A DNA stretch of 48,526 nucleotides, taken from NCBI GenBank assembly GCA_903922175.1, contig CAIXSY010000429.1, positions 1 to 48,526 on the forward strand, in the 5' to 3' direction. Positions 1-24,798 of the stretch are shown here, in pieces; position 1 is the first letter of the stretch, and each line of letters begins with the position of its first letter. The DNA is from an uncultured delta proteobacterium (GTDB taxonomy: Bacteria; Bdellovibrionota_C; UBA2361; CAIXSY01). The notes under the pieces are model-generated. The model did not search any database. It worked only from the letters and a program-made list of their open reading frames with translations, and was not told where the DNA came from. A program made the position numbers and the translations under genes.

Positions 1-15
1 ACCCTAAATCTCTCC

Positions 16-378
16 GTGCGTCCCCGTCCATCATTTACCGTGTCGCCTCACATTACCTCCAACTGCGTAGGAACTGCACTGTTCTTGGTAGGAGAAGCAA
101 ACACAGATTCTACTATCAATGTTTTTACAGCTTGGGGAGAGCATTTTACTAATCGACATCGGAAGTTTGGTGCCGAACCTTATAAGGGCGCCCTAGCGGT
201 GTGGGGATATGAGTATGGACAAGGAAAAAGAAATCTTCAACTTATGGTATGGCATGTGGCCCTCAAAACGAACGTTTCTGTACGAGAGCCCATCAGGCCT
301 CTGAGAATAGCACATCGACCAGACCACGCGGCTCTTTTTGAAGAGGAGCATTTCTCTGATGTGGATAAGGAAACATGA
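16..378 (+). CDS. Hypothetical protein, probably the 3' end of a gene starting before the window
   Basis: ORF at the window edge with a GTG start and no recognisable motif. Confidence 0.35.
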   Translation: MRPRPSFTVSPHITSNCVGTALFLVGEANTDSTINVFTAWGEHFTNRHRKFGAEPYKGALAVWGYEYGQGKRNLQLMVWHVALKTNVSVREPIRPLRIAHRPDHAALFEEEHFSDVDKET

Positions 379-542
379 AAATCATTTTCTGAAAGTTAAG
401 AATAGCGAAGGGGGACCTTGCGTTGTCAAAAAGAGAATTTCCAGCGCGAAAGGATCTTGAACTTCGATTTTACCTGCCGAAACGACTTGTTCCGGAATTG
501 CGAGCCGGTCAATTGCGCTAAGTAGTGCAGATAAAAAACTAT

Positions 543-575
543 GAACCTCCGATAATCTTTACTTTTCGAATTTTA
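543..575 (+). other. Putative lox-like recombination site A (degenerate right arm)
   Basis: GAACCTCCGATAA-tctttac-TTTTCGAATTTTA; same left arm and 7-bp spacer as sites B, C and D. Confidence 0.5.
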
Positions 576-1577
576 ATTATGAGGATCCCCGTCAAATTTG
601 GGGAGCACACCTCCACGGAGATCTTTAACATGAAAGATACGACGGATTGTTAAGAGCTTCATATCCCCCTCTTGCCCACTGAGCCTAGCGAAGGTAATGG
701 TTCCCGAGCGAGAAGTAATTGGCTTAAAGTGTGGACTATTCGCCCCGAACGCATCTACCATAAACTTTTTCCAAGCATTGATGCCGATCTTTACAGCTAG
801 CGTACGAAGAATCAGCTCGGAAGATGCCTCTAAGGTCACAATATCAGCAGGATGTTTCCCGTCCGATGAATGGACTCCAAGGACCGCCGTCGAAGCAAGA
901 TCGCAATCTAAGAGGTCTCCATTCTGCTTAAGGGAAAACTCGTTTATTCGACGGATAGAAAAAAACTTTTCCTGACCGATTTCGTAGGTATTCGCAAATA
1001 GTCGAAGAACGGCTGGGTAGTTATTGAGTACGTCGGATTTATGAAGTCCATCCAGAAGTTGAAAGCTCGCAAGTAGATCACTATCTACATTTTTACGAGC
1101 GCATGCGATTTGAAGATCGTCTAATATAAATAGAATCGTAATGCGCCTTTGAAGATCGGAGTTAAGAAGTTCATGGAGGCGCCCTACTATCGCTGTGGCT
1201 AACGGCGCAAAAATGAACGAAGTATTTTTAACTTTATCCCTGAATGCTTGCTCAAGATTTTGAACTTCATAGAAAGTTTCCAAAGATTGCCAGAGATCCA
1301 CGATGGCTTGACTCCGCTCAAGAGGAGAGCTTTTGGGATCGAGAAATGGGTCTCGTGCCTGATGAAACCACTTTTCTTGGAAAGGCCTTTGAGTGGGAGC
1401 AAAATCAACTAGTTCTATTGCTCCTGACATGGGCAAGTAGATCTGATGCTTTGCAAACTTGGAGGCAATGTATTGCGAAAGCTGTAAGCGCTGCCTAACA
1501 CGGTGTTGGGACTCGCATTTTCGCGCAATGCAAAGAAGATTTGCTGGGCCGTTATCTAGGAGCAGGCGTCTAGGCAT
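573..1577 (-). CDS. Hypothetical protein (334 aa)
   Basis: Long ORF with no recognised family; its TAA stop (573-575) lies in the arm of site A. Confidence 0.7.
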   Translation of the reverse strand: MPRRLLLDNGPANLLCIARKCESQHRVRQRLQLSQYIASKFAKHQIYLPMSGAIELVDFAPTQRPFQEKWFHQARDPFLDPKSSPLERSQAIVDLWQSLETFYEVQNLEQAFRDKVKNTSFIFAPLATAIVGRLHELLNSDLQRRITILFILDDLQIACARKNVDSDLLASFQLLDGLHKSDVLNNYPAVLRLFANTYEIGQEKFFSIRRINEFSLKQNGDLLDCDLASTAVLGVHSSDGKHPADIVTLEASSELILRTLAVKIGINAWKKFMVDAFGANSPHFKPITSRSGTITFARLSGQEGDMKLLTIRRIFHVKDLRGGVLPKFDGDPHN

Positions 1578-1660
1578 CCACTGTTTATATCAATTTCAGC
1601 TCGCTCGTCTCAACTTTAGGATTTTGGGTTCCTCACCAGAATGAATGGGTGATTTTCGTG

Positions 1661-1685
1661 ATCGTGATCGTGGTCGCGGTCGTGG
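1661..1685. repeat. Left arm of a 25-bp perfect inverted repeat made of RTCGYG hexamers (partner at 5424-5448)
   Basis: ATCGTGATCGTGGTCGCGGTCGTGG is the exact reverse complement of 5424-5448. Confidence 0.8.
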
Positions 1686-1868
1686 TCGAGTGGTCTCAGC
1701 GCAAGCAAAGGGCAGTCAGCATAGCAACTATTCCCTCTATGCCACAAACTCTATGCTTACCTTGTAGACATCAAGTTTCTGTGTCCTTTCGGCAAGCCTG
1801 CATGAATCCCGTTGAGCGCCTCTGGTAAGCTGTCTGCGTAAAGCGCGACAACATAACCAGGAGGATAA

Positions 1869-2285
1869 ATGAGGAAAGGGAAAATCGATAAGATTGGGGA
1901 AGAAGTAGAGCCAGCAGTAATCAGGCTAAGACAACGCATAGAGCGCTGGCGAGTGAAGCGAAAGATCGGGAAACGGATGCCGGAGAGGCTGTGGCTGGCG
2001 GCGCTTGAGGTAGCACGATGGCAGGGCCTCGCCCCGACGGCGCGGTTGCTAAAGCTCGACTATTATACCCTCAAGCGGCGGCTTGAGGGAGACACTTTAG
2101 CAAAATCTGCTTTTATAGAACTTGGACCGGTGGGCAACCTAGCCACCAACCCTGCCGCTGGTCCAGCCGAGTGGAGCATCGAGGTAGAAGAGCGGCGTGG
2201 GCGAAAGATACGAGTGCAGTACAAAGGCCCGCTGGCGCCTGATCTTGGATTGCTGGGGAGCAGTCTTTGGAGGGCAGGTAAATGA
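1869..2285 (+). CDS. tnpA: IS66 accessory protein TnpA (HTH-like)
   Basis: First ORF in the IS, GGAGG RBS, ATGA overlap with tnpB, PERLW..A..AR..G....AR.LKL.Y..LK pattern. Confidence 0.8.
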   Translation: MRKGKIDKIGEEVEPAVIRLRQRIERWRVKRKIGKRMPERLWLAALEVARWQGLAPTARLLKLDYYTLKRRLEGDTLAKSAFIELGPVGNLATNPAAGPAEWSIEVEERRGRKIRVQYKGPLAPDLGLLGSSLWRAGK

Positions 2286-2644
2286 TCCAGGTAACACCAC
2301 AGATGCGGGTATTGGTAGCAAGCGCAGCGGTGGACTTTCGCAAAGGCATCGACGGACTGGTGCAGGTATGCCGGGCGGAGCTTGGGGCGGAACCATTTAG
2401 CGGGGCGCTGTTTGTGTTTCGGAGCCGAAGCGGTAAATGCATCAAGATTCTGGTGTACGACGGGCAGGGTTTTTGGCTGTGCCAAAAACGATTATCGAGG
2501 GGGCAGTTTCGGTACTGGCCATCCCCCAACGCTGGAGAGTCTGCCAGGGTGTTGGCGGCACATGAGCTGCAAGTGCTTCTGGCGGGCGGCGATCCCGGGG
2601 CAGCGCCTGGAGCGGAGCAGTGGCGCGCGCTGCATAATTCGTAA
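2282..2644 (+). CDS. tnpB: IS66 accessory protein TnpB
   Basis: VDFRKGIDGL, LFVFR, KILVYDGQGFWLCQKRL..G.F.W motifs. Confidence 0.95.
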   Translation: MIQVTPQMRVLVASAAVDFRKGIDGLVQVCRAELGAEPFSGALFVFRSRSGKCIKILVYDGQGFWLCQKRLSRGQFRYWPSPNAGESARVLAAHELQVLLAGGDPGAAPGAEQWRALHNS

Positions 2645-2682
2645 AAAACAGCAAAAAGAATGGCACATAGGCGCAAAAGGAC

Positions 2683-2711
2683 TTGCGTTCCGGGCGAAAT
2701 CCTGTTACTTT
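2683..2711 (+). promoter_or_regulatory. Putative sigma70 promoter for the DUF4338 gene and tnpC
   Basis: TTGCGT-17 bp-TACTTT with extended -10 TG; ATG follows 6 bp later. Confidence 0.4.
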
Positions 2712-2717
2712 TTTGGC

Positions 2718-3608
2718 ATGACGGAACTTCTGCGCTATCGCGGACGAAACATAACCGAGAACGAAGCTGCCTTTATCCGGAAGTTGATAGCGGATAACCC
2801 AACACTTAGCCGTCGCGCCCTATCAGCCAAACTGTGCGAAGCCTGGAACTGGCGGCAGGCTAATGGGGCGCTGCGCGACATGGTATGCCGTGGGCTTATG
2901 CTCGTGCTACACCGTGCTGGACATATAGAGCTACCGCCTGTACGCCAGGTAAATCCAAACCCGCTGGCGCGTAGCGCCGCTGCGCGCCGTGCACAGACGC
3001 TCGTAACGATAGACACGCCAGCGTTAAGCGGCAGCCTAGCGGAGCAGCAGCCGCTCTCTATTGTCCAAGTACGGCGCACTGAAAGCGAGGCGCTCTTTGA
3101 TAGCCTTATTGAGCAGTACCACTATCTTGGCTACGTGCAGCCGGTGGGAGAGCACCTAAAATACCTGGTCTATGACCGTTTGGGGCGAGTACTTGCATGC
3201 CTGGCCTGGTCTTCGGCGCCGCGCCACCTTGGAGCGCGAGACCGACACATTGGCTGGGACGCCGCTGCACGACTACGCAATATTCGGTTTATAGCCTACA
3301 ACACTCGCTTTCTTATCTTGCCACACGTACAGGTGCCGCACCTCGCAAGCCATATCCTTGGTCTTCTGGCGCGCCGGATTAGCGCTGACTGGGAGTTTTT
3401 GTATGGGCACGCGCTGTATTTCCTTGAGACTTTCGTCGACCCGCAGCGTTTTAAGGGTACGTGCTACCGGGCGGCTAACTGGGCTGTGCTTGGACTAACC
3501 ACCGGGCGCGGTAAGGCTGACCAAACTAAGAAACAAAACCGCCCGATTAAAGAGATTTTGGGGTATGCGCTGCGGCGCGATTTTAGGGAGCGCCTCATTG
3601 CGGCATGA
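2718..3608 (+). CDS. DUF4338 / Druantia DruA-like domain protein (IS passenger)
   Basis: YHYLGY..PVGEHLKYLV, RD.HIGW, NTRFLILP, ETFVDP.RF.GTCYRAANW..LG.T.GRGK motifs; start placed at the ATG of MTELLRYRGR. Confidence 0.85.
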   Translation: MTELLRYRGRNITENEAAFIRKLIADNPTLSRRALSAKLCEAWNWRQANGALRDMVCRGLMLVLHRAGHIELPPVRQVNPNPLARSAAARRAQTLVTIDTPALSGSLAEQQPLSIVQVRRTESEALFDSLIEQYHYLGYVQPVGEHLKYLVYDRLGRVLACLAWSSAPRHLGARDRHIGWDAAARLRNIRFIAYNTRFLILPHVQVPHLASHILGLLARRISADWEFLYGHALYFLETFVDPQRFKGTCYRAANWAVLGLTTGRGKADQTKKQNRPIKEILGYALRRDFRERLIAA

Positions 3609-5275
3609 TGAAAAAGACTGAGCGCGTAGAGATCGACATTCACGAGATTGAGGCGATCCTGGATCGTACCAAGACAGGATCTTTGGGAGACGAGGATTTC
3701 GCCAAGCTCAAAGCGGCGCTAGAAACATTAGCATACCTGACAGATCTGGTAGAGGATCGCCAGACGACGATGGCGCGGCTGCGCCAGATGCTGTTTGGTG
3801 CCAGCACGGAGAGCCTGAGTAACGTACTAAAAACGCTGCACACACAGACAGCAGCAGGCAGTGGCACTGAGAACAGCGCGAGTGATAATAAAGCCGCAAC
3901 CACGGAGCCTAGCGCCAAAGGGCATGGCCGAAATGGGGCAAGTGAATATAGTGCCGCCAAAAAGATAAAAATTCCTCTTGATTCGCTCAAGGCTGGGCAA
4001 CGCTGCCCAGGCTGCCTTAAAGGCAAGCTTTACGACTCCGTGGCGCCAGGACTGTTAGTGCGGGTGACGGGACAAGCACCGCTTGCTGCAACCGTATATG
4101 AGCTACAAAAACTGCGCTGCAATCTGTGCGGCGAGGTTTTTACTGCCGAGCCGCCTGCCGGCATCGGCACAGAGAAGTACGATGCAGCAGCTGGTGCGAT
4201 GATCGCCATGTTGAAGTACGGCAATGGAATGCCCTTTAACCGCCTGGCCCAGCTGCAAGAGAACATGGGGCTGCCGCTACCGGCAGCCACGCAGTGGGAG
4301 ATAGTTGAGGCAGCAGCCGCCCTAGCAGAGCCGGCACACATAGAACTGGTTCGGCAGGCAGCCCAGGGAGAAGTGCTGCATAACGATGACACCGGCGCTA
4401 AAATACTTGAAATGATGAGCGACAATAACGCGGTGACGAAGCAAGAAGAAGACGAGGAGTCACGAGGCATAGAAGACCCTGAACGGAAAGGTATGTTCAC
4501 CTCCGGCATCGTGGCCGTGACGGGCGAGCATAAGATTGCGCTGTTTTACACCGGGCGTAAGCATGCCGGGGAGAACTTACGGGAACTACTTAAGAGGCGT
4601 TCAGCAAACTTGGCGCCGCCAATTCAGATGTGCGACGCACTGTCGCGCAACATGCCCAAGGAACTCAAAACCATCGTCGCTAATTGCGCAAGTCACGCCA
4701 GGCGTAAGTTTGTCGATGTTGCACTCGACTTCCCCGAGGAGTGCCTACATGTGCTGAAGGTATTTCGGGAGGTGTACGCCGTCGATGCTGCGGCTAAGGA
4801 GCAGAGACTCTCTGCGACTGATAGGCTGGCGAGCCACCAAGCTGAAAGTGCTCCGCGCATGACTGGTCTTCACGACTGGATGAAAGAGCAGATAGCTGCC
4901 AAGAAAGTCGAACCCAACTCAGGTCTTGGGCAGGCAATCGGCTATATGCGCAAGCACTGGGAGAAGCTTACCCTATTTCTACGTGTCCCTGGTGCCCCAC
5001 TCGACAACAACCTGTGTGAGCGCGCCCTCAAAAAGGCAATCCTACATCGTAAAAATGCCTTGTTCTATAAGACGTTACATGGCGCCGTAGTCGGGGACTT
5101 GTTCATGAGCCTCATTCATACCTGTCAACTCTGCGGCGCCAACCCCTTCGATTATCTCGTAGCGTTGCAAAAACACCACAGTGAGCTCGCTGCCACTCCA
5201 TCAGACTGGATGCCATGGAATTATTGCCCTACCATGGATGGCTTGGCACCACTGGCTCCAGCTGCGCAACCTTGA
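3605..5275 (+). CDS. tnpC: IS66 DDE transposase TnpC
   Basis: N-terminal coiled coil ending LFG.STE, CPGC/C..C zinc finger, HNDDT, MCDA, C.SHARRKF, DNNLCERALK. Confidence 0.95.
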   Translation: MMKKTERVEIDIHEIEAILDRTKTGSLGDEDFAKLKAALETLAYLTDLVEDRQTTMARLRQMLFGASTESLSNVLKTLHTQTAAGSGTENSASDNKAATTEPSAKGHGRNGASEYSAAKKIKIPLDSLKAGQRCPGCLKGKLYDSVAPGLLVRVTGQAPLAATVYELQKLRCNLCGEVFTAEPPAGIGTEKYDAAAGAMIAMLKYGNGMPFNRLAQLQENMGLPLPAATQWEIVEAAAALAEPAHIELVRQAAQGEVLHNDDTGAKILEMMSDNNAVTKQEEDEESRGIEDPERKGMFTSGIVAVTGEHKIALFYTGRKHAGENLRELLKRRSANLAPPIQMCDALSRNMPKELKTIVANCASHARRKFVDVALDFPEECLHVLKVFREVYAVDAAAKEQRLSATDRLASHQAESAPRMTGLHDWMKEQIAAKKVEPNSGLGQAIGYMRKHWEKLTLFLRVPGAPLDNNLCERALKKAILHRKNALFYKTLHGAVVGDLFMSLIHTCQLCGANPFDYLVALQKHHSELAATPSDWMPWNYCPTMDGLAPLAPAAQP

Positions 5276-5423
5276 GCCGGGGGATGCCTCCCTACGCTGC
5301 TTACCCGAGATTCGTGCGCATCATGAAAAGAAATTTCGGCTTTTGCAGGCTTGCCGAAAGGACACAAGTTTCTCATGCGCGAACATGTAATATATTCGGA
5401 CTATTCAGCGCAAAGTTTCCTGT

Positions 5424-5448
5424 CCACGACCGCGACCACGATCACGAT
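5424..5448. repeat. Right arm of the 25-bp inverted repeat (partner at 1661-1685)
   Basis: CCACGACCGCGACCACGATCACGAT. Confidence 0.8.
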
Positions 5449-5623
5449 TTGAAAAAAGAGCCTTTCGATTCCCTCGATAAACTTAACTATATCAAATAAT
5501 TAGTCTATCGTTAGTATTGTTCTCTACCCACACTTATTGGTGAGGAACCGGATTTTGAGTGACTGGAGCACCTCGGATTGACTGATGACTTGACACTTTA
5601 TCATCAATTCGCCATCAAATTCA

Positions 5624-5656
5624 TAACTTCCGATAATAGATCGTTATCGGATGTTA
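5624..5656 (+). other. Putative lox-like recombination site B, upstream of the recombinase
   Basis: TAACTTCCGATAA-tagatcg-TTATCGGATGTTA; arms are 12/13 inverted matches; the left end ATAACTTC equals the start of loxP. Confidence 0.75.
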
Positions 5657-5741
5657 GGGGACCTTACCTGTTGAATTAGCTATATTTAGTTGAATCTTCA
5701 TATGGTCTTCAAGCATCCAATAGTATATAAAGAAGGAAGGT

Positions 5742-6707
5742 ATGAAGAACTCCCCTGCCCTGCATAACCCTACAACATCGCTAGATCCGGAAATCCGGGA
5801 GCTCCACCAATTTGCTGCGCTCGCTGATTCGCGAAATACTCAGCGAGCTTACTTAGCTGACTGGAAGCATTTTCTGTCATGGTCTAAGAAACGAAATAAA
5901 TCACCACTTCCTGCAGACCCGGATGATATCGCCATGTACCTACGTTATTGCGCTGAAAAACTAAAACTCAACGTATCAACCGTAAGACGGCGTGTTGCAT
6001 CGATTGCCGAAGCTCACAAGAGAAATGGACATGCATCGCCTTGCGCAGAGTGGGTCGTCAGAAACACGATGAGAAGGTTAAGACGCGAGCTTGGAGTCCC
6101 AGCGCGTGGGAAGAGTCCCATTCTTGTGAGTGATCTAAAGGCTATGATAGCAAACTGTCCCCCTTCCCTTGGCGGGCTTCGTGACAAAGCCGTGCTTCTT
6201 ATAGGCTTTGCCGGAGCATTTAGAAGGAGTGAGCTCGTAGCACTAAATATCGATGATCTTACTATCTCCGATGAAGGATTAGTTATTTTAATACGCGAAG
6301 GTAAAACTGATCAAAAAAGGGAAGGACGTAAAGTTGCTATTCCCTTTGGAAAGAGTCCCCTCACCTGCCCCGTAAAGGCATTAATTGATTGGCTTGAAGC
6401 CGCACGTATTACCACTGGTCCGGTGTTTCGGGCTGTTACGAAATTCGAGAAACCGCGCACAACTCGATTGTCCGACAGAGTTGTTGCCGAGATTGTCAAA
6501 AAATATTGTGGTTTGGTTGGAAAACGGGTTGCGCGCTTTTCGGGCCACTCGCTAAGGGCCGGACTCGCCACTTCAGCGGCTATTGCAGGAGCCTCTGAAG
6601 CGTCAATACAGAAACAAACTGGGCACAAGAGCCTGCTTGTTCTTAGGAGATACATCAGGGATGCATCATTTTTTCGAGAAAATGCGGCTAGCAAGCTCGG
6701 GTTATGA
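5742..6707 (+). CDS. Cre-like site-specific tyrosine recombinase
   Basis: N-terminal SAM-like NT.RAY..DW..F; catalytic R (GAFRRSEL), K (GKTDQ), HxxR (GHSLRAG), H (TGHKS), Y (RRYIR); AGAAGGAAGG RBS. Confidence 0.93.
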   Translation: MKNSPALHNPTTSLDPEIRELHQFAALADSRNTQRAYLADWKHFLSWSKKRNKSPLPADPDDIAMYLRYCAEKLKLNVSTVRRRVASIAEAHKRNGHASPCAEWVVRNTMRRLRRELGVPARGKSPILVSDLKAMIANCPPSLGGLRDKAVLLIGFAGAFRRSELVALNIDDLTISDEGLVILIREGKTDQKREGRKVAIPFGKSPLTCPVKALIDWLEAARITTGPVFRAVTKFEKPRTTRLSDRVVAEIVKKYCGLVGKRVARFSGHSLRAGLATSAAIAGASEASIQKQTGHKSLLVLRRYIRDASFFRENAASKLGL

Positions 6708-6731
6708 CGAAACAAAAGCGAACTCCTCAAA

Positions 6732-7763
6732 ATGCCCAAAGTTAAAGTTCCAGTATCCACAAATAGTGCCGCTAGTATCTTCAAGACTCGTAAAGCATTT
6801 GCATTAGCTCCACGCCGAGAATGCCATGTAAATCGCTGCCCAAACTCTCCGATACGCAGTCATTCAATCAGTAAAAATCATCTTTCTCTTATAGAGACGG
6901 ACGGACATTTGTTTACTCTATCTGAAAGAGAACTTTTTGATGGCACTTTTATCGAGTATTCCAACGCCACAGTAGTTAAAAAAGTTGGGATAGGCGACGC
7001 GACTACATTCGATGGGTTTTGTTCAAACCATGATAACGATCTCTACCAATCAATCGATAAAATTCAATTTGATCTAACACCCAATAATCTGTTGCTGTAT
7101 GCACATAGGAACTTTGCTCGCCAAGTTTCTGAACATTCCAGTCGGGTAGATCAACTTAAGCATTTCTTCTCTATCCATCCCCCTCCCCCGGAGCCTTTGA
7201 GATCTGCGGCTCTGCGACCATTGAAAGTTATGGAATTGAACCTCGATTATATTCGACGTGGTTTTCGAGAGCTTTCCCATACAATAAACACCAGTAAACA
7301 GCAACGTTTTACTCACCTAGTACTCGAAACGAATGCTCGGATTGGATTCGCAATTTCTACGATTCTTTTTCCGACATATTCAATCTTCGGAGATTCATAC
7401 GGTCGAGATGTAAATGGATGGCCAGTAAGTCTCACAATTCTTCCCGATGCCAATCGATCTCTCATACTCTTAACATCTAGGAATCATAATTATCTTGCAT
7501 CAGTAGCTTTCTTGAATTCGATTGAAACCGCTTTCAAGTCAGCCCATAAAAACATCACATCATCCTGCATAGCCGTCGCTGCTATTGAAGGTTGCCCGGT
7601 TTTTTCGCAAAAGTGGTGGGATTGTTTAACGTTAGATCAACAAGAGTTCTTCTTTAAATGTTCTCAGTTCTCCGACCATGAGAATACAGATCCTTCTGTT
7701 TTATCGTCGGCAAAACATATTATTTTGGATTCTACCCCTATAATCAGTTGTTCCCGTCTGTAG
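6732..7763 (+). CDS. Hypothetical protein with an N-terminal Cys/His (HNH-like zinc) motif
   Basis: C....C....I.SHSIS and F.GFC..HDN.LY..ID patterns; starts 24 bp after the recombinase. Confidence 0.65.
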   Translation: MPKVKVPVSTNSAASIFKTRKAFALAPRRECHVNRCPNSPIRSHSISKNHLSLIETDGHLFTLSERELFDGTFIEYSNATVVKKVGIGDATTFDGFCSNHDNDLYQSIDKIQFDLTPNNLLLYAHRNFARQVSEHSSRVDQLKHFFSIHPPPPEPLRSAALRPLKVMELNLDYIRRGFRELSHTINTSKQQRFTHLVLETNARIGFAISTILFPTYSIFGDSYGRDVNGWPVSLTILPDANRSLILLTSRNHNYLASVAFLNSIETAFKSAHKNITSSCIAVAAIEGCPVFSQKWWDCLTLDQQEFFFKCSQFSDHENTDPSVLSSAKHIILDSTPIISCSRL

Positions 7764-7819
7764 AATCTATCCATTCGACGTCTCAGACATATTGGAGTTT
7801 AATCTTGGAAGAGCATAGC

Positions 7820-7852
7820 TTCCTTCCGATAAGTTTTCCTTATCAGATCGAA
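7820..7852 (+). other. Putative lox-like recombination site C
   Basis: TTCCTTCCGATAA-gttttcc-TTATCAGATCGAA, intergenic. Confidence 0.65.
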
Positions 7853-7975
7853 TCAGAATTAGTTGCTTGAACCGGCGTACTTAAAATGATTTGTTATCTC
7901 GCCCTATTCTCCATTTGCGTTTTAATCATAGTCACTTCACTCATATCTAGTGATGATACGGTAGCGGGATTCATC

Positions 7976-9064
7976 TCAACAATTGACTTTGCCCCACTGC
8001 ACAAATAAATCTGCATGGTGAATGACACACCCTGCGCCTTCCATTATTTTAGGATCAGGACTGCAGTTTTCAGTACTAATCCCAGTAAGAAGGTTCTTCC
8101 AAACTTCCACACACCCTAAGTATTCCTTTTGAGAAGGAATTGCTTGGCCGATGGAACATCCAAACCTTGCTTTTTGAGAAATACTGTAATGTAGATACAT
8201 CTCCTTACATACAAGCTCAAAAGACCGCGGAGCCAAGTTTTTATAGTTCTCCTCGTATAATTGATGCAACGATCGACACGTCTCTACGTCGATGTTGATA
8301 AGGGGCTGTTCCTCTGGGTCGAGAGATCCTCCGTAAATATGCTCAGCGGGACCTGCATGCTTTAGTTCTTTGTGAAGCACTCTGTTTACAAAGATGCTTG
8401 AATCGTTTTTCTTTTGAATTTTCGCGATTAGGAGCCACAAAGAAATCGGTGAGGTGACAAAGCCAGCATAATACAAACGAGGAATGCCTCTTTCGCAAAT
8501 GAACTCAAGAAGGTTTAGCCTCATCTCGTTGAATTTGCGATGGAAGGAAATCGCGGACTCGAGATCTTTGGGACTTGGCTTGTTAATGGAATACCCACTA
8601 GGGAACGGATTTGGATGGTTGTGCAGTATCAAAACCGTATCATAAGCTATGCGGCGAACCTGTTCATGCAAATCTTGATCAGTCAGCGCCAAATAAACTG
8701 AATTTGCATCAGCACCTTTGTTCCACCATATTCTTCGAGATATATGATTTTTAACAAAGACTATTACAATCCATTCATGTTTCTTGTATTTGAGCAGTCC
8801 TGCAACTTTCGCAGGAGTAATTCGATAGTCCAATTGGCAGTCAACAAACTCTCCAACCGCCGCCATGGCAGCCTTGTAGGAAGGATCTGCGTAAATAGTG
8901 GTGGTCTGAAAGGAGTATTCCGACAAATGGATGTTCCTCTGTCGCTTCTTAGCTAGAGCAACGATCTGGTCATTAGTTAAAGGATGACGGTGCCGGTAGA
9001 TATCTATAGAATATAAAAGTGCCGCTAACCCTAATCCAGCTCCGATTACAATCACCAACGCCAT
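7976..9064 (-). CDS. Membrane-anchored protein with a JAB/RadC-like metal motif
   Basis: N-terminal hydrophobic helix; EW.V.F upstream of ILHNHPN......PS..D (JAMM-like). Confidence 0.6.
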   Translation of the reverse strand: MALVIVIGAGLGLAALLYSIDIYRHRHPLTNDQIVALAKKRQRNIHLSEYSFQTTTIYADPSYKAAMAAVGEFVDCQLDYRITPAKVAGLLKYKKHEWIVIVFVKNHISRRIWWNKGADANSVYLALTDQDLHEQVRRIAYDTVLILHNHPNPFPSGYSINKPSPKDLESAISFHRKFNEMRLNLLEFICERGIPRLYYAGFVTSPISLWLLIAKIQKKNDSSIFVNRVLHKELKHAGPAEHIYGGSLDPEEQPLINIDVETCRSLHQLYEENYKNLAPRSFELVCKEMYLHYSISQKARFGCSIGQAIPSQKEYLGCVEVWKNLLTGISTENCSPDPKIMEGAGCVIHHADLFVQWGKVNC

Positions 9065-9154
9065 GTTTACCTAGAATTACAACTTGGGTTCTTGAGGGGT
9101 AACACATCAATGTGTTTGCTCACGTCACTAGTACAAACTGCAAAATCTTTGGCA

Positions 9155-9252
9155 ATATAACAGCTAGATTGTGCGGTTCTGGGCTCTCATAGTCAATGAA
9201 ATTTCCACGAAAACACGGCAGGCCCATAATCCGCACTACTCGTATATTAGAC
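9155..9252 (-). other. attC-like imperfect palindrome at the 3' end of the TIR gene
   Basis: Minus strand GTCTAAT (contains the stop)...GTGCGGaTTATGGGC / GCCCAGAACCGCAC...GTTATAT, 98 bp. Confidence 0.4.
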
Positions 9253-10458
9253 GGCCTCCTCGATTGTTTCGACAAGAGGCATCTTTGCGGCTTTCAATTC
9301 GCGTTTGAGCTCCTCCTTCCATCGGCCATCTGAACTCATGCGTATGTATACGATTCCGTCAAAATCGGACGGGGTTTCCAGACTTGGAGTGATAAGAGCA
9401 CACACCCGCTGCTGGCCAAGATGGGAAAGAAAGTAACCTAGTTCAAGAATAACATTTTGTCTTGCTCGCGGTTCTAAAGATGCACCTTTGAGGCTGCCAA
9501 CATCGTCATCGGTCATTAGGACGATCGCGAATGTAACAAGCTCAGCCTCCTCAATAAATTTCGTCAGAAGATGCCGTCCCATGTTGGGTTGATCATGCAA
9601 TACTATTCCCTCCAGGCCGACACTTGAAAGAAACGAGACTATGTTTTCTCTGAGTACATCGTTTTGCCCGTGGACGACAAATACCCGATTAGGAGAACGT
9701 GTTTCAGACTCTTCGTGAGGATCCGCCTGTTCTGGAAGTATTTCACCAATTTCTTGGTGTTGAGATCGTTCAACCGTTGCAAGAGCTTTCTTGATAATAT
9801 AGGCCGACAATAAAGAATTTTCGGCCGTTGTTGCCGTTGGGTTATTAAGAGTGAACTCGATGATTTTGTTGGTCCTATCTCGGCGACTCCCCATGCCTCG
9901 ACCAGCATCCAGCCCAAATTGTCCTGCCTCCAGCAGTAAATCGTCTATGTCTGTATGACTCCATTCTGAGATTATGTTTTTAGCTTTGAGAATCTCGGCG
10001 CGAGTTGGTGCTGGAAGCGGTTTGAATTGGAATTGAGAAACGAGATTCTTATCGAATTTATAGCCAGCGGCGGCAAGAACCGAAAAGAGATCACGATCCT
10101 TGATAGCCCAGTGATTACGGCTGAACTCGAACTGTTCAAAATCAAGTTGCTCCCGAGTTTTCCAAAGAAAATCATTCAAAATTTTACTTGAAGTTGGCAA
10201 AGTAGTGAGCATCACCTTGATGTCACTTTTGGTAATATCAATCGCTTTAATCTGTACAACGTGCGCTTCTTCTTGGCCTCTCCCTTCGTACATCAGAATG
10301 CATGGCCATGATATAATGCAGTCCTTTGCCTCCACTGAGAGTGATTGCAACTGAACCCTAATTAGGTCAGCTGTGTACTCCAGGAAGCGATTTCTTGGAA
10401 TCTCAAATAGTCCGCTACCGCGATTTCCGACTTGGGATGGCACAAACAGACTGTACAT
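9247..10458 (-). CDS. Nucleotide-binding protein with a C-terminal CAP12/Pycsar-type TIR domain
   Basis: RVFVVHG, FAIVLMTDDD, RARQNVILELGYF, ETPSDFDGIVY motifs. Confidence 0.88.
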   Translation of the reverse strand: MYSLFVPSQVGNRGSGLFEIPRNRFLEYTADLIRVQLQSLSVEAKDCIISWPCILMYEGRGQEEAHVVQIKAIDITKSDIKVMLTTLPTSSKILNDFLWKTREQLDFEQFEFSRNHWAIKDRDLFSVLAAAGYKFDKNLVSQFQFKPLPAPTRAEILKAKNIISEWSHTDIDDLLLEAGQFGLDAGRGMGSRRDRTNKIIEFTLNNPTATTAENSLLSAYIIKKALATVERSQHQEIGEILPEQADPHEESETRSPNRVFVVHGQNDVLRENIVSFLSSVGLEGIVLHDQPNMGRHLLTKFIEEAELVTFAIVLMTDDDVGSLKGASLEPRARQNVILELGYFLSHLGQQRVCALITPSLETPSDFDGIVYIRMSSDGRWKEELKRELKAAKMPLVETIEEAV

Positions 10459-10744
10459 TTACTACGAGGTCCTTTGTCTCAATTGAAGTAGATTGGTTTG
10501 CCGCCTACAATGTTACGTATTACAGTCAGTCTAAACTGCCAGTAAGCGTACTCAACCTGAAAAACAACAACCTATCTAGTGCTAAATCGTTCTAAATTGC
10601 CTATGAATTCACCATATTAAAAAACCCCAAACTCACTTGCCACCATGTTACTCAAAGCTTTTGACCTCGATGTTGGAGTAGAGTCAGATGCGAGCACTCA
10701 TCGTTTTGGAATTCTAATGAGGCTGTTTGCCCCCTCCCCTAGCT

Positions 10745-10777
10745 TAACCTCCGATAACGCCCTCTTATCAGAATGAC
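10745..10777 (+). other. Putative lox-like recombination site D
   Basis: TAACCTCCGATAA-cgccctc-TTATCAGAATGAC, intergenic. Confidence 0.7.
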
Positions 10778-10841
10778 TTCTCTAATCGCCTAAAACAATT
10801 ACCCGATTAAGAATTATTGAGGTCCTCTCCCGGGAGAGAAA

Positions 10842-11117
10842 TCAATCCCAGACTTCCGTTATCGATACCTCTAGATCGTGCTTATGACACTTGGGGCATT
10901 CTATAGTCTCGGGCTTGTCAAGGTCCAGAGGTGTGGCAGGCGACCCGCAACAGAAGCATTTCGAAATCGGCTCGGCTGACAGGACAGAAAAGATGCCCTC
11001 GCAAGTGACACAGTACACTATGAAGTACGCGCTATTGCCGCCTACCTCGCCACAACCATCCATAAGACCTGTCGCACAAAATCCACATGGACAATCAATT
11101 CGATAAACGGTTCCCAT
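10842..11117 (-). CDS. Small zinc-ribbon protein
   Basis: CPCG, CVTC, CFCC and CPKC Cys pairs in 91 aa. Confidence 0.7.
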   Translation of the reverse strand: MGTVYRIDCPCGFCATGLMDGCGEVGGNSAYFIVYCVTCEGIFSVLSAEPISKCFCCGSPATPLDLDKPETIECPKCHKHDLEVSITEVWD

Positions 11118-11251
11118 GGGCTCATTTGAATCGGTACATGCAAAAAGGTCAAGCTTTCTTTGAGTCCGGAGGTAACAGCCTGCCCCTGCGTGCTAAAAGC
11201 TTGATTTCCCGCAGTCCGACGAGCACACTACATCAACAGGGATTTACTATT

Positions 11252-11989
11252 ATGATTCACGACTTAAGCGAGATTTTGTTCCTTGATATCGAGACGGTGC
11301 CGGCATACCGTAATATTTCCGAGGTCCCAGAGGACTTAAAGGAAATCTGGATTGAATCCAACACTAAGCGGCGTAAGAAAAAGGTCGTGGAAGATGAGGA
11401 CGACGGTGAGGCTCCGCCCGGGGCTGGCCCTTCGATCCAAGATGCCGGTCAAGCTGGCTATGACGAGGGAGCGGGCTTAAAGGCAGAATTCGGCAAAACC
11501 ATTTGCGTTTCCTTGGGCCACTTTGAAGGTGGCACGGCGGATGAGAACTTCCGCATTTATTCGCTATCCTCACATAACGAGAGTGAGATCCTAACTCAGC
11601 TCGCGGCAGTGTTCGAAAAGTATTCTACTTTCAAGCTCTGCGCCCACAACGGTAAAGGCTTTGATTTCCCATTCCTCGGAAAGAGGTTTCTGATCAACGG
11701 GATCCCCCTCCCCTCTCAACTCGATATCATGGGCAAGAAGCCCTGGGATATTCTCCACTTAGATACTAATGAAATGTGGGCTTTCGGAGCGCGAGGAGCT
11801 GGTACGGGAGCAAAGCTAAAGCTCCTTTGCGCGGTTTTTGGCATCCCCTCTCCTAAAGATGACATCGACGGGTCAGAGGTGCGCGGGGTTTACTATGAAG
11901 AAAACGACCTCCCGCGTATCGTTAAGTATTGCGAGAAGGACGTTATCTCTCTGGCGAAGGTTTTTAAAAAACTGCAAGGATTCCCGTGA
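11252..11989 (+). CDS. PolB-like 3'-5' exonuclease (DEDD/RNase H-like fold)
   Basis: FLDIET, HNGKGFDFPF, HLDT, YCEKDV; start placed at MIHDL. Confidence 0.88.
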   Translation: MIHDLSEILFLDIETVPAYRNISEVPEDLKEIWIESNTKRRKKKVVEDEDDGEAPPGAGPSIQDAGQAGYDEGAGLKAEFGKTICVSLGHFEGGTADENFRIYSLSSHNESEILTQLAAVFEKYSTFKLCAHNGKGFDFPFLGKRFLINGIPLPSQLDIMGKKPWDILHLDTNEMWAFGARGAGTGAKLKLLCAVFGIPSPKDDIDGSEVRGVYYEENDLPRIVKYCEKDVISLAKVFKKLQGFP

Positions 11990-11996
11990 TCTCAAT

Positions 11997-13781
11997 TCAC
12001 TCCTTACGCCATCGCCTTACAACGTCAGCAAAGCTCACGTTTCGCCAATCGGCTTGCCACTCCCCAAACACCTTCACGCTTTGGGACTGCGGCTCCGGAT
12101 TCGGCAATTCCAAATGAACGACAGCGGGAAGGAGTATTGCATCGCCGACCACGATGCACTCACCATCCGTTAGATTCGGTAGTATTTCGGTTATGGCGCT
12201 GGAATTATCTGGGAACAAGCGCCTGACGTAATCCTGATCGTGGCGGTTGGTTAGACGGAGTGCTATAAAATTGTTACACTGCGCAAATATAGTCTCCGAA
12301 ACTTCAGACGGCCGCTGGCTTACTACCATGAGGCTTAGTCCGTATTTTCTTCCCTCCTTGGCGATTCGCTCAATTGACTTTCGAGATGCCCTGTAAGCGG
12401 CATCGTCGCGCGCAGGCACATAGTTGTGCGCTTCTTCACAGACTACCATGACGGGTATATCATTCAGCACGCCCTTCTCGTGTTGGAGTTTGGAATAATG
12501 GAAACAAAAGTCGAATACTAGGCGTGAGATTAAGCTCACCGTTATGCTCAGCACTTCGAACGGCACGCCGCTTAAGTCGACGATGGTGATGTTTGCCTTA
12601 TTAATATAGCCAAGGAACTGCTTCATTATTTCCTCGAAGTCCTTAGTTTCGTAGGGTTTCCCGTCCCTCTGTGGGTGAAGCAAAAAATTTAGGCGTTTGT
12701 CCGAAAGCTTGGTCTGGAGTCTCGACACAAAGCGGTCGAATTCTCCATTGAACGGCCCTGTTGTTGCTCGATCCTCTTTGCCGGTCGACCATGGAACAAA
12801 ATCATGTACTTTATCGAAATACACACATCGATCTGGAACGAGCTGTGGCGGATTAGCGAACTTTGGAAGATTCTCCCCTGGTTTTTTGCCAATCACTTCG
12901 AGGTTCATGTTTTCAATATAATGTTCAACTTCCTCGATCGAGAAATAGACGGGTGTGTCGTAAGTGATATCCTTTACACCGGGGTTGTGCTTTTCCTTGT
13001 TTAGAATTACAGCTTGCTTAAACTGTGATACCTGATTGTGTGAGTTATCTTCGTTGCTCTCGATGAACATGCTCTCTAGTTCTTCCGAGTTCATGAGCCA
13101 ATAAGGAAGCTTCAATTTTGCCACATCAAGCAGATTGAGCGTAAAGTCCTGCTGTGTTTCCAGTTTGAACGCGGCAGCATACTCGGCGTGGATATCAAAA
13201 ACCACAATATGTGAATTATTTTGCCTACCACGGTTTTTGTTCTTGCCGTTGTTAATGCCAACCACGTCTTGCAAGACTTTCGCTACAGCACAAGACTTAC
13301 CAGACCCCGTAGAGCCAACGATCGCAATGTGCTTTCCAAAGAATCTATCACCGTTAATGTGCAGAATGACCGCCTCATTCATTGCAAGCTTCCCGAGAGG
13401 CATATTGTACAGTCCGCCAGATTGAAACAATGCGTCAAGTGTCCCGGTGTCCGCTACATATACAGGTTCGGTCGGCACCGGGAGTAAGACGCTGCCCCTT
13501 CGAAATTTTCCGTCAGCGCCTAGTGCGCCGATGGCCTGACATTCGATCTCGAACTGCCATTGAGGGGTGTTTGCTGAACCAGCCTCTGGTGTGGCGTTCT
13601 TCCCGTTCAGATTTAAGATAACCGCAATCGTGAAATCATCGTTACCTTGGGCGATCTTAAGATAACGACCAATCTGCAAGTCTTTTTTATTCTCTTCGAA
13701 TGTCTGGAGGTCTGCGATCTCAACAACAATACAGCTTGGCGAACACGAGAGGACCTGTCCGATAGATTTATTCGTAGGCAT
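11997..13781 (-). CDS. herA: HerA/DUF87 anti-phage ATPase
   Basis: HAS-barrel-like N-terminus, Walker A GSTGSGKS, DIHAEY, Walker B VCEEAH, IAKEGRKYG, SQRPSE. Confidence 0.92.
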   Translation of the reverse strand: MPTNKSIGQVLSCSPSCIVVEIADLQTFEENKKDLQIGRYLKIAQGNDDFTIAVILNLNGKNATPEAGSANTPQWQFEIECQAIGALGADGKFRRGSVLLPVPTEPVYVADTGTLDALFQSGGLYNMPLGKLAMNEAVILHINGDRFFGKHIAIVGSTGSGKSCAVAKVLQDVVGINNGKNKNRGRQNNSHIVVFDIHAEYAAAFKLETQQDFTLNLLDVAKLKLPYWLMNSEELESMFIESNEDNSHNQVSQFKQAVILNKEKHNPGVKDITYDTPVYFSIEEVEHYIENMNLEVIGKKPGENLPKFANPPQLVPDRCVYFDKVHDFVPWSTGKEDRATTGPFNGEFDRFVSRLQTKLSDKRLNFLLHPQRDGKPYETKDFEEIMKQFLGYINKANITIVDLSGVPFEVLSITVSLISRLVFDFCFHYSKLQHEKGVLNDIPVMVVCEEAHNYVPARDDAAYRASRKSIERIAKEGRKYGLSLMVVSQRPSEVSETIFAQCNNFIALRLTNRHDQDYVRRLFPDNSSAITEILPNLTDGECIVVGDAILLPAVVHLELPNPEPQSQSVKVFGEWQADWRNVSFADVVRRWRKE

Positions 13782-15045
13782 TACTCAGTCCCAATATAAA
13801 GTAAAGCTCTTGCCACTTCGATAATCCAAATTGCGCTACATTCACGTCCTGCAGTTCCAGTGCTTCATGTGGCTTCTCGCCGACCATGATAAGGTCATTA
13901 CACTTGTGAAGGTTCAAAGTCGCCGCATGCGCACCCTGAAGCAGTCGCACGTCGAATTCGCGTATGTGATTGGACATCTTTCCGGTAGTCATGGGCGTGC
14001 GGAAGAAATGATCTTCAAAGAATTTTCCTCCTATGCACCCATCCGTGATCTTAATGCCCTTCTGAAAAAGTCTTTGGCAAATACCGGAGAAGCAGGATGC
14101 GTCGCAATCGAGGCAAAAAACCGGAGTCTGAGTGTGAGCCGGTTTGCAGTGATACTTCTCCAGATAGTCACTAATAAAAGTGACAATCCTACTGTCAAAA
14201 TCTTCCAAGCTACTCTTCGAAAGGATAAAGTACCGTAGACGTGTATTAATGCTGAGATTACACCTGAGTTGCCTACGCCTGGCCTCTAGAATCATCTTTC
14301 TTGTAGTCAACGCCAAAGTCCACCGGCTGATAGTCGTTGCTCTTATCGCGCTTAGCTCGTTTAGCAATTCAGTTCGATTAAGCTTTCGTTCCTCCCCCGA
14401 GTGCTTCATGCTTCGGTTCGCGATAATCTGAATGGCATTGGGATAAAGCAGCGTTGGTATATCACTTTTCGCTAAGCCATTTGACTCTAAAGCGCCGTAG
14501 ACATCGCTGACGAGCTGGCTGAGCGGAACACCGAATTCGAACGAAAACGCTCCGAGAAATCGCCTAATATTGACCTTGTCTTTGAGTTCGGCTGCTAAAA
14601 CCATCAGACTTTTATTCTCTGTTCTTAGAGCATCTTGCACCTCTGCAGTTGTGATTTTTCGAAGTCCAGGTTGCTGACCTTTGACATAAGCGTAGAGACG
14701 ATACCTAATTTTCCGTCCACCACACTTGTTAAAGTGCGCCAACATCTGGAGCAGCGGTTTATAAATGAGGCTTAGGGCAAAACCAATGTTCGATTCGTGG
14801 TACTTGCACTGAATTGCCGTGTCGTCGCGAGCACCAGCTATATCAATATCCTCGATTATACCTTCGACCGTGATCGTTTGCCCGTCATCTGCATTTAGTA
14901 TCTCAAGGAGGGTCTTATTGAATTGGTAGATAAACCCCTGAATAGTGTAATCTGCCGACCGTCGCGCGGCCTTTTTTCCAGAGGACGGCTGCAGCACTTT
15001 ATTTCTCTTACTCTTTACCAAGACTAAACTGCCGCACGTGTCCAC
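13768..15045 (-). CDS. DUF4297-like PD-(D/E)xK nuclease (DUF4297-HerA defence system)
   Basis: A..TI.GF.YQ, VEG..EDID, IQCKY motifs; overlaps the herA start. Confidence 0.8.
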   Translation of the reverse strand: MDTCGSLVLVKSKRNKVLQPSSGKKAARRSADYTIQGFIYQFNKTLLEILNADDGQTITVEGIIEDIDIAGARDDTAIQCKYHESNIGFALSLIYKPLLQMLAHFNKCGGRKIRYRLYAYVKGQQPGLRKITTAEVQDALRTENKSLMVLAAELKDKVNIRRFLGAFSFEFGVPLSQLVSDVYGALESNGLAKSDIPTLLYPNAIQIIANRSMKHSGEERKLNRTELLNELSAIRATTISRWTLALTTRKMILEARRRQLRCNLSINTRLRYFILSKSSLEDFDSRIVTFISDYLEKYHCKPAHTQTPVFCLDCDASCFSGICQRLFQKGIKITDGCIGGKFFEDHFFRTPMTTGKMSNHIREFDVRLLQGAHAATLNLHKCNDLIMVGEKPHEALELQDVNVAQFGLSKWQELYFILGLSNAYE

Positions 15046-15134
15046 CTTCGATTATCCTCTCTTTTCCATTCTGGTCGCACACCACGGATAGAGCGGTGTG
15101 GGCGAAATCGAAATATGCCTTTGCGCCTCTTGAA

Positions 15135-23800: not shown

Positions 23801-24373
23801 GCTGGGAGTGGCGGCTTCCAAGTCCTTAGTAAAGACGCGAAACTCCAAGCCGAACTTTTCGAACATTTCTTCGCGCCACTGCTCCACTAGACTTCCCGGT
23901 GCCACGATGACAATGCGCCGAGCATCTGCCCTCATAATGAGTTCGCGGATGTAGAGACCGGCCATAATGGTCTTGCCAGCGCCGGGGTCATCAGCAAGGA
24001 CAAAACGTAAGGGCTGGCGTGGAAGCATGGCTTCGTAAACCGCCGTAATTTGGTGGGGAAGCGGGTCCACGTTTGATGTGTGGACTGCCATCATCGGATC
24101 AAAAAGAAAGGCGAGGTCGATTCGCTTAGCTTCGACGGCGAGCTTAAAGTCTTCTCCGCTACCATCAAAGGCCCACGGACGCTCCTGGGTGGCTAGGTCA
24201 ATGCCAACCTCATCAGCTCGACCAAGGAGTCGATCCTTAAGCGCACCTTCGGGGGTTTTGTAGATGACTTGAGTGGCCCCTTCCGCGATTGGGACTACAG
24301 CAACAACCGTGACAACGCTTGCTGGTTCAATGCCAGTTAGAGGTATCCCGGGTTTAATATCTTCAAGTCGCAT
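20861..24373 (-). CDS. SNF2-family helicase with a C-terminal DUF3883 nuclease domain
   Basis: [31 protein letters not shown]; C-terminal GWDL...IEVKG. Confidence 0.93.
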
Positions 24374-24420
24374 AAAGTAGAACCTTCACGTAATTGGTCA
24401 CGTCCTCGTCGCATTCACGG

Positions 24421-24669
24421 TCATTCCTTCGTCTTCATCTTATCGCCGTTAGCGGCAATGAACGAACGGATCTCCTCCATCATGTCGAGAAGTCTCAGCC
24501 ATTGCTCTTTGTAAAGAGTTACAGGAAAACGTCCGAGGCCGTACACCGAAAGGCCCCCCGTCTCACCGATTTTGAGACTCAAGCCCTTCTCTTTTCCTTT
24601 CTTAAGAGCTTCGTTTTCAGCACGGAGCCTTTCTAGCTCCGCTTTCATGTCGACTTCGCTGTTACTCAC
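24421..24669 (-). CDS. Small conserved hypothetical protein (coiled coil + G.LSVYGLGRFPVTLY.EQW)
   Basis: AGAGGAG RBS; motif familiar from small proteins on mobile elements; function unknown. Confidence 0.8.
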   Translation of the reverse strand: MSNSEVDMKAELERLRAENEALKKGKEKGLSLKIGETGGLSVYGLGRFPVTLYKEQWLRLLDMMEEIRSFIAANGDKMKTKE

Positions 24670-24798
24670 TTTGCTCTCCTCTCTCTATTTTAATAGCATT
24701 TCCAACAACCTAAGTCATGTTTCCCATACTTCTGTATCCAGTGCTAATCGCGCATTAATCGCGCTCCAATCCGGACATTATCCGGTCATAATCCGGCC

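Follow-up and report, generated by a model that had tools for sequence, protein, structure and literature searches.

Does a tyrosine recombinase that lies amid four short, lox-like sites use them to collect and shuffle genes, or do these sites record something else? The question is raised by the left end of contig CAIXSY010000429.1, from the genome of an uncultured delta proteobacterium; the entire contig (contig C429 of that genome, 48,526 bp) was analysed and is referred to here as the window. A sequence-only reading of this DNA had seen a Cre-like recombinase gene, four sites (A to D) and, between the sites, modules of accessory or defence genes, and it had proposed a self-encoded platform for gene capture or shuffling. 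The picture at which we arrive is different. The recombinase and site B are well supported as a predicted fusion/resolution module of the type of Rhizobium etli IntA, and A, C and D are genuine att-like sites of the same family. There is about an even chance that these three are junction scars of earlier IntA-type joinings, locked by their unrelated spacers and weak right arms.

The kinship of the recombinase with Cre was borne out. Its nearest relative of solved structure is Cre (phmmer against PDB chains, E 7.8e-16 over residues 3-308, with XerD following at 1.6e-5), the alignment runs over the full length and the catalytic residues are present. Across 33 homologues R162, H269, R272, H295 and Y304 are invariant and K188 nearly so, H295 standing where Cre has an aligned tryptophan. 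The protein is also, as had been claimed, neither an integron integrase nor a XerC or XerD, its scores lying far below the cut-offs of the respective models (XerC, TIGR02224, 63.9 bits against 335.15; XerD, TIGR02225, 56.3 bits against 329.6; integron integrase, TIGR02249, 17.3 bits against 265). It is the sole member of its family in the 4.8-Mb genome. The family itself is large (of 8000 candidates that were scored, more than 7600 are relatives at E<=0.001) and mostly unannotated ('site-specific integrase'). Homologues are found on 61 IMG/VR contigs and, at E<=1e-30, on 973 PLSDB plasmids, almost always one per record, while proteins 65-80% identical to the window recombinase occur in Logan and ENA contigs.

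Work on R. etli IntA supplies a tested function for this family. IntA is described as cointegrating the plasmids p42a and p42d, catalysing both integration and excision (PMC4928290; PMC3224233). The 23-bp att site given for it is TCCGATAA-GCATTAC-TTATCGGA, and attA and attD are reported to differ by one nucleotide with the efficiency kept (PMC4928290). In the plasmid records attA lies at 2595-2617 of p42a, upstream of intA (coding sequence 1339-2487), attD lies at 5743-5765 of p42d without an annotated tyrosine recombinase beside it, and each of the two plasmids has one strong site. The window recombinase is homologous to IntA over its full length (BLASTP, 29% identity over 339 columns, 92.4 bits, E 1e-25), although IntA is longer (382 aa) and has an insertion in its N-terminal domain. 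The sites are alike too, two 8-bp palindromic arms, TCCGATAA and TTATCGGA, enclosing 7 bp within a near-palindrome of 13-7-13 geometry (arm, spacer, arm; 33 bp), which is the geometry of all four window sites. B matches the IntA core without a mismatch, C and D match it if R is allowed at one position and A with 2 mismatches; one of the 13-bp arms of attA recurs unchanged as the left arm of D. In both systems the att site is found about 100 bp upstream of the gene (85 bp from the end of B to the start codon in the window, 107 bp in p42a) and in a plasmid setting. By these resemblances the site core and the recombinase family are already known, being of the IntA/attA-attD kind. Recombination activity has been shown for IntA only, the window system being known from its sequence.

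That the sites belong to the recombinase can be deduced from its homologues, which across many phyla have a 13-7-13 palindrome beside the gene. Defined by ATAA...TTAT ends and at least 10 matches in 13 between the arms, this palindrome was found in 93 of 161 sources (160 related loci and the window), usually directly upstream of the recombinase gene and with an arm sequence that varies by lineage. The spacers of the primary sites in the clade of the window recombinase resemble one another (tagatcg, tatatcg, ttgatgc, gggatcg). A similar constancy was observed at a greater distance: the spacer cgatata, with near-identical arms, is common to Veillonella loci (L064, L067, L069, L079) and to a genome of the window's own order (L241, G081:C3, 4086-4118), and the spacer of B is one base off cgatata. 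This conservation across phyla suggests that the att-recombinase unit has spread recently or else that the spacer is constrained.

The family is also present in SAR11 bacteria, where homologues 37-40% identical to the window recombinase are encoded at four of the loci compared (L039, L051, L054, L057) and at over 40 further Pelagibacteraceae loci. The site TTACTAATGATAA-ttaattg-TTATCAATAGTAA stands there about 30 bp upstream of the gene (site near 9970, gene at 10001) and its spacer is constant across many genomes. It looks like a housekeeping dimer-resolution site of a single recombinase. Pelagibacter ubique is entered as lacking dif and Xer in a 2009 survey (PMC2731167), and a 2026 preprint lists XerC and XerD in Arctic strains, the names coming from automatic annotation.

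Within the window the four sites were found at the positions and with the letters that had been described (Table 1), and their excess over chance is large. The pattern TCCGATAA-N7-TTATCRGA, with at most 2 mismatches, has 8 matches, namely the four sites on both strands, against 0.08 expected, a number reached by none of 100 shuffles. A weight matrix of 26 columns, trained on the four sites and scanned over the genome (4.79 Mb in 432 contigs), gives 35.2-38.5 at A-D and no more than 21.0 elsewhere, so the motif is not a genome-wide one, and a second replicon with a comparable site was not found in this genome. The window contains the 9-mer YTCCGATAA 5 times, and the remaining genome has it 0.92 times per 48.5 kb. 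The next best place, a related palindrome at C202:11525, is the only other good palindrome of the same type in the genome (G000:C202:11525-11557, TAACTAGCGATAA-tatatga-TTATCGCTGGTTA); it is located 9 kb from an Xer-like recombinase gene (1795-2763) whose product is 22.5% identical to the window recombinase.

Three more ordinary readings of the sites were rejected. They are not a repeat of the repetitive extragenic palindromic (REP) type, since the genome has no further copy. An RNA hairpin or terminator does not agree with A and D, which pair at 8/13 and 7/13 positions only, and no terminator-like site was found in the scanned stretch 5450-5800 around B. A sigma-70-like promoter across B scores no higher than shuffled sequence.

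The two arms of the sites have fared very differently. All four left arms resemble each other, and the stronger arm is the left one in all four, so the sites are co-oriented. The arms were scored with a half-site matrix built from 32 primary sites of the family, in which a match requires a strong arm and a sufficient combined score, and which gave 0 matches in 2.1 Mb of reversed control sequence. By this measure B alone has two good arms (Table 1); it is also, as had been noted, the most symmetric site, with arm palindromy of 12/13 against 10/13 in C, 8/13 in A and 7/13 in D. The 7-bp spacers all differ, any two of them being identical at 0-4 of 7 positions. The sites are 5081 (A-B), 2196 (B-C) and 2925 bp (C-D) apart and all are intergenic, with the sole exception, already pointed out in the sequence-only reading, of the stop codon of the gene 573-1577, which falls in the right arm of A. 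The composition of the genes changes at D, the GC content at codon position 3 being 0.35-0.44 in the six genes to its left that do not belong to an insertion sequence (IS) and 0.48-0.56 in the next seven genes to its right. There is no such boundary at A, B or C.

Table 1. Sites, recombinase and cargo of the left end of the window (half-site scores are given as left arm / right arm).
Feature	Position	Strand	Description
Tyrosine recombinase, 321 aa, intact	5742-6707	+	Pfam Phage_integrase with N-terminal SAM-like domain
Site A	543-575	+	GAACCTCCGATAA-tctttac-TTTTCGAATTTTA; good left arm, poor right arm; scores 15.8 / 3.9
Site B	5624-5656	+	TAACTTCCGATAA-tagatcg-TTATCGGATGTTA; near-palindrome, cognate att site; scores 21.1 / 17.8
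Site C	7820-7852	+	TTCCTTCCGATAA-gttttcc-TTATCAGATCGAA; between two convergent genes; scores 13.9 / 7.1
Site D	10745-10777	+	TAACCTCCGATAA-cgccctc-TTATCAGAATGAC; scores 18.6 / 4.2
334-aa gene	573-1577	-	Sole A-B cargo besides the insertion; weak PIN-like lead only
Nested insertion	1627-5549		IS66-family element (orfA, TnpB, DruA-domain open reading frame, IS66 transposase) inside a second element
343-aa conserved hypothetical protein	6732-7763	+	Starts 25 bp past the recombinase gene
362-aa protein	7976-9064	-	N-terminal hydrophobic stretch; H-x-H-P...S-x-x-D (JAB/MPN-like) motif, by eye
403-aa protein	9247-10458	-	C-terminal TIR domain, CAP12/Pycsar type; matches PADLOC candidate PDC-S35

By analogy with R. 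etli IntA, two recombinase monomers would bind the arms of an att site, two such sites would synapse and strands would be exchanged across the 7-bp spacer, in either direction. A module of this kind could fuse two att-bearing DNA circles, separate them again and resolve multimers. Sites A, C and D may be what past joinings left behind, whether a whole replicon was fused and then trimmed or a smaller circle was inserted, and the 10-kb region would then be a mosaic assembled at att sites. This presupposes an active enzyme, its binding to A, C and D and an origin of these three by recombination, all of which we infer. As the spacers all differ and only B has two good arms, pairwise exchange within the array is unexpected by the usual mechanism, and canonical exchange between A, C and D appears unlikely. 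An array whose sites do not recombine with each other could be stable even though it contains its own recombinase gene.

Among the observations that support this reading are the behaviour of the att site and gene as one unit, a hybrid-like site in a Bryobacterales genome (G001) and the composition step at D. The unit can be delimited in two comparisons. Loci L087 and L088 are 90% identical over 1095 bp, from the first base of the site to 3 bp past the recombinase stop, and their flanks outside this stretch are unrelated. For the window and G081:C3, whose recombinases share 72% identity, the common stretch begins 16 bp before B and goes no further than the end of the gene; in G081 the neighbouring genes code for a TPR-GreAB-PIN protein and for metal efflux. 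The att site and the gene therefore make up a unit of about 1.1 kb in changing surroundings, and the variable neighbourhoods that had been predicted for the homologues are indeed seen. Such variation fits flank exchange at att, short of proving it. The layout of A and B has a counterpart in L087, where a secondary site is separated from the primary one, adjacent to the gene, by a 3.2-kb segment (adenine deaminase, cyclase-like protein). L087 was considered together with L088/L089 as a filled/empty pair and rejected, the same att-recombinase unit having unrelated left flanks.

In the Bryobacterales genome G001 a larger array was found (C16:153126-181382; L046, L169, L170), with 8 sites in 28.2 kb around a recombinase gene whose product is 48% identical to that of the window. 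All 8 spacers are different and the strong arm is on one strand in six sites and on the other strand in two. The sites stand at gene boundaries and enclose single genes or small gene groups: from one site it is 88 bp to the start of a MacB/FtsX permease gene, the end of which is 13 bp short of the following site, and the genes for a DUF3738 protein and a SIR2-like protein are enclosed likewise; 7 of the 10 open reading frames tested have no Pfam family. Multiple sites at gene boundaries with varied cargo, which the sequence-only reading had named as support for its proposal, thus exist in at least one other genome. Further sites are found on contigs C3, C8, C13 and C19 of G001, and one site of the array has the same spacer and left arm as a palindromic site on C19, which is how a hybrid junction would be expected to look.

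Arrays are nonetheless the exception in this family, the rule being one site beside the gene. Counted with the half-site matrix in 173 loci, sites were absent from 93, single in 73 and multiple in only 7, that is, in 7 of the 80 site-bearing relatives, against four sites in the window. The genome and metagenome loci with a GC content of at least 0.40 (n=98, 62 of 160 having been dropped as AT-rich because the scan is noisy there) have no site in 44 cases, one in 48, two in 5 and six in 1; the viral loci (n=60, 1 of 61 dropped) none in 43, one in 16 and three in 1; the plasmid loci, both R. etli ones included (n=8), none in 3 and one in 5; the contigs of the window's phylum (n=7) none in 3 and one in 4. 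No plasmid locus and no contig of the phylum has more than one site, although the latter include the closest homologues (78% and 72% identity). These counts refer to loci that mostly extend only 10-20 kb from the gene, include near-duplicates (L037/L096; L088/L089) and were made with a matrix trained on part of the same loci. The sequence-only reading had itself named homologous loci with a single site as evidence against its proposal, and this is largely what was found.

Several points weigh against junction scars. No pair of window sites shows an identical spacer with swapped arms, the signature that a single event would leave, so the scar origin is deduced and not seen. All three degenerate sites retain the left arm, whereas random decay should affect both, and this retention has the look of selection on function, or else of a rule that governs insertion. 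The composition does not change at A, B or C, hence the modules are not visibly of different origins. Neither an empty-site relative nor an empty/filled site pair was found among the relatives compared. R. etli offers no precedent for arrays, since it has one strong att site per plasmid and partners that differ by a single spacer base, unlike the window, in which four sites with unrelated spacers share one replicon.

Among sequencing runs the region was found in only 4, all from lake water and from one study, and their Logan contigs were aligned to window positions 1-12500. Independent contigs from two runs have the sites in the order of the window, one run spanning all four and the other C and D. 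The excised circles and hybrid junctions for which the sequence-only reading had advised looking were not found in the contigs of the 4 runs, nor were alternative junctions at the sites, the sole joints lying inside the IS; contigs cannot show rare excision products, and this result is therefore silent on activity. As to relatives, no related replicon with the same backbone plus or minus one module was found. What seven related contigs of the window's phylum (19-60 kb each) have in common with the window is limited to the genes for the recombinase, Rep, ParA and a DprA-like protein; none of them has the flanks of A or D. No module was found in duplicate or in another context; among 124 genomes of the phylum the JAB-like protein is confined to the window's own genome, and none of the cargo is shared between the site-bearing loci of G001.

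There is a small chance that only B is functional, in multimer resolution or fusion, and that A, C and D are decayed or foreign sites without a role, brought in by homologous recombination or transposition. One site per replicon is what is usual in the family, the right arm scores 17.8 in B but 3.9-7.1 in the three other sites, and the plasmid homologues have their gene in maintenance regions, next to toxin-antitoxin and ParA genes. Lone sites without a recombinase gene within 10 kb do exist in related genomes (L236, L237, L239, L240). What this view leaves unaccounted for is that the three extra sites lie within 10 kb of the genome's sole family recombinase, with no strong site elsewhere, and that all have one orientation and are intergenic, which is hard to reconcile with passive cargo; their left arms, moreover, are near the family consensus (13.9-18.6 bits), a likeness for which the reversed control gave no match. 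Sites away from the recombinase may also come in pairs. In L238 (G078:C30) two near-perfect palindromic sites, 3.6 kb apart (9999-10031 and 13623-13655), flank a Mu/Tn552-like transposase gene (rve and Mu-transpos_C) together with the gene for an AAA_22 ATPase, and a ParA gene is adjacent; within 10 kb there is no recombinase of the family.

We also doubt that the array is an active cassette platform, in which the recombinase would insert, excise and reshuffle modules in the manner of an integron or of the dif modules of Acinetobacter. It would need an exchange that tolerates mismatched spacers, for example one in which a single strand pair is exchanged and replication completes the process, and the accessible parts of the literature examined contain no report of spacer-independent exchange in this family. 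The rarity of arrays, the at most single site in each of the 7 contigs of the phylum, the lack of any module seen twice or elsewhere and the lack of alternative junctions in the contigs of the 4 runs (in which rare forms are invisible) all point the same way. The attraction of the idea lies in the array itself: its sites coincide with gene boundaries, whole genes being enclosed along with their upstream regions, the cargo is of the accessory or defence kind (the TIR/PDC-S35 protein, the JAB-like protein, conserved hypotheticals), all four sites have preserved the same arm, the Bryobacterales array frames single genes within 13-88 bp, and more than one site is present in 7 of the 80 site-bearing loci. 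Of the shuffling platform, the accessory and defence cargo stands, and exchange within the array is unlikely. It is a rather unlikely generalization, which we put forward tentatively, that IntA-type att arrays with incompatible spacers are a third gene-capture architecture beside integrons and Xer-dependent dif modules. Such an architecture, self-encoded, Cre-like and found on plasmids and chromosomes of unrelated phyla (the lake-water genome of the window and the Bryobacterales genome), might take up defence and accessory genes one module at a time and escape self-deletion, though the odds seem to us to be against this as well.

It is very improbable that the sites are heterospecific docking pads, each spacer being a live target for a different partner with the same spacer, as with incompatible lox variants, so that the array would collect DNA from several partners without self-deletion: the spacers here are unrelated whereas those of primary sites in the clade are alike, A and D each have a left arm and spacer similar to those of primary sites in other subfamilies (L117, L200) and the G001 array has a site with a same-spacer partner on another contig, but no such partner for A, C or D was found within this genome, a search of IMG/VR for exact 19-mers of B, C and D (A left out) gave 0, 1 and 1 matches, close to the chance expectation (about half a match, from a rough estimate of the size of the collection), and the weak right arms speak against efficient synapsis. 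The IMG/VR matches of C and D were rejected as partners, no recombinase being nearby and the match of C falling within an open reading frame.

With junction scars of IntA-type joinings as the preferred reading, the array can be set beside the better known systems that it recalls. The pdif sites of Acinetobacter have 11-6-11 geometry and alternate in orientation. The window resembles them in having accessory genes of a plasmid set between multiple short sites with two arms, and plasmid fusion and resolution at pdif sites are described as documented. It differs in that its sites are 13-7-13 and co-oriented, and in that the enzyme is encoded inside the array and is far below the XerC and XerD cut-offs, whereas pdif modules depend on the XerC/XerD of the host. 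With integrons, as these are commonly described, it has in common a co-oriented array of sites that delimits gene modules by a tyrosine recombinase gene, with defence cargo. The recombinase, however, is not of the IntI type by its score, its gene lies inside the array and not beside an attI, and the sites are short duplex near-palindromes of 33 bp, not long folded attC sites; in contrast to attC, conservation concerns the letters of a single arm and not the pairing (8/13 in A, 7/13 in D).

The likeness to Cre-type systems (Cre, Vika, Dre, VCre), as presented in one study, extends from the enzyme to the sites, which are simple and two-armed, have a G/T-A-T/G-A motif beside the spacer and are located near the gene (PMC10250229). 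Cre-type sites are described there as 13-8-13 and 34 bp in length, unlike those of the window and the primary sites of its family; as the arms of the window sites are arranged 13-7-13, GATA and TATC are 9 bp apart in them. Cre also uses one site per replicon. In the same source Cre-type enzymes are taken to require matching spacers, an assumption that speaks against shuffling within the array and would account for the persistence of an array with its own recombinase gene inside. The screen for Cre-type sites is said to have considered spacers of 8 bp only (PMC10250229), which 13-7-13 sites would escape because the spacer length was fixed.

The recombinase and its site are an ordinary pair. What is unusual is the presence of several sites in one replicon, all with different spacers and framing defence and accessory genes, and this pattern recurs, on a larger scale, in the unrelated chromosome of the Bryobacterales. 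If the enzyme does build such arrays, a simple Cre-like system would be assembling mosaic plasmids and defence islands, and nature would provide sets of mutually incompatible sites for a single recombinase, useful for genome engineering. If the sites have merely decayed, a large family of 'site-specific integrases' has still been linked to its 13-7-13 site.

The cargo between the sites required some corrections to the sequence-only reading. The product of gene 573-1577 found no match in Pfam, NCBIfam or PADLOC, and its Atlas matches are below the threshold. The module between A and B measures about 1.2 kb once the insertion is removed, and not about 1.5 kb as had been stated, the IS being nested in a second element. 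The IS66-family element (about 1770-5375) has perfect inverted repeats of 23 bp at 1780-1802 and 5344-5366, and the outer element has imperfect ones at 1627-1685 and 5424-5549, rich in GTGATCG/GTGGTCG units. The insertion has a GC content of 55%, against 44-45% in the surrounding DNA, and is a later arrival than the module around it. The extra open reading frame of the IS66 element (2382-3608), between tnpB and the transposase gene, encodes a Druantia DruA domain (E 1.2e-31), and the outer repeats are also seen in other contexts, as loose ends of metagenome contigs. An 'HNH-like' label given to the 343-aa protein was not confirmed; its relatives are in Bacteroidota and Pseudomonadota, some of them bearing a SEC-C motif. 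For the two genes between C and D, read as JAB-like and TIR, the TIR assignment stood, and the JAB motif was recognized by eye only, the 362-aa protein matching no family model.

To the right of D there is a dense defence island (10842-26199), with genes for a PolB-like 3'-5' exonuclease, HerA with DUF4297 and a Schlafen-AlbA/HATPase_c_4 protein, together with a trio of DUF499, a DUF1156 methyltransferase and a SNF2/NOV_C helicase. Beyond the island there are DprA-like, AbiEi-like and Fic genes, two Rep genes (RPA family) and two ParA genes. The contig is plasmid-like by this Rep and ParA content; no terminal overlap of the contig was found, so that circularity was not seen. A homologue of the RPA-family Rep is present in 115 of the 124 genomes of the phylum (73 of the 73 high-quality ones) and resembles a core chromosomal gene, for which reason Rep alone is no proof of a plasmid. 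The two Rep genes of the window (28582-30051 and 35792-37267) are rarer paralogues, and in three genomes (G106, G060, G062) this rarer paralogue and a recombinase of the family are found on one contig.

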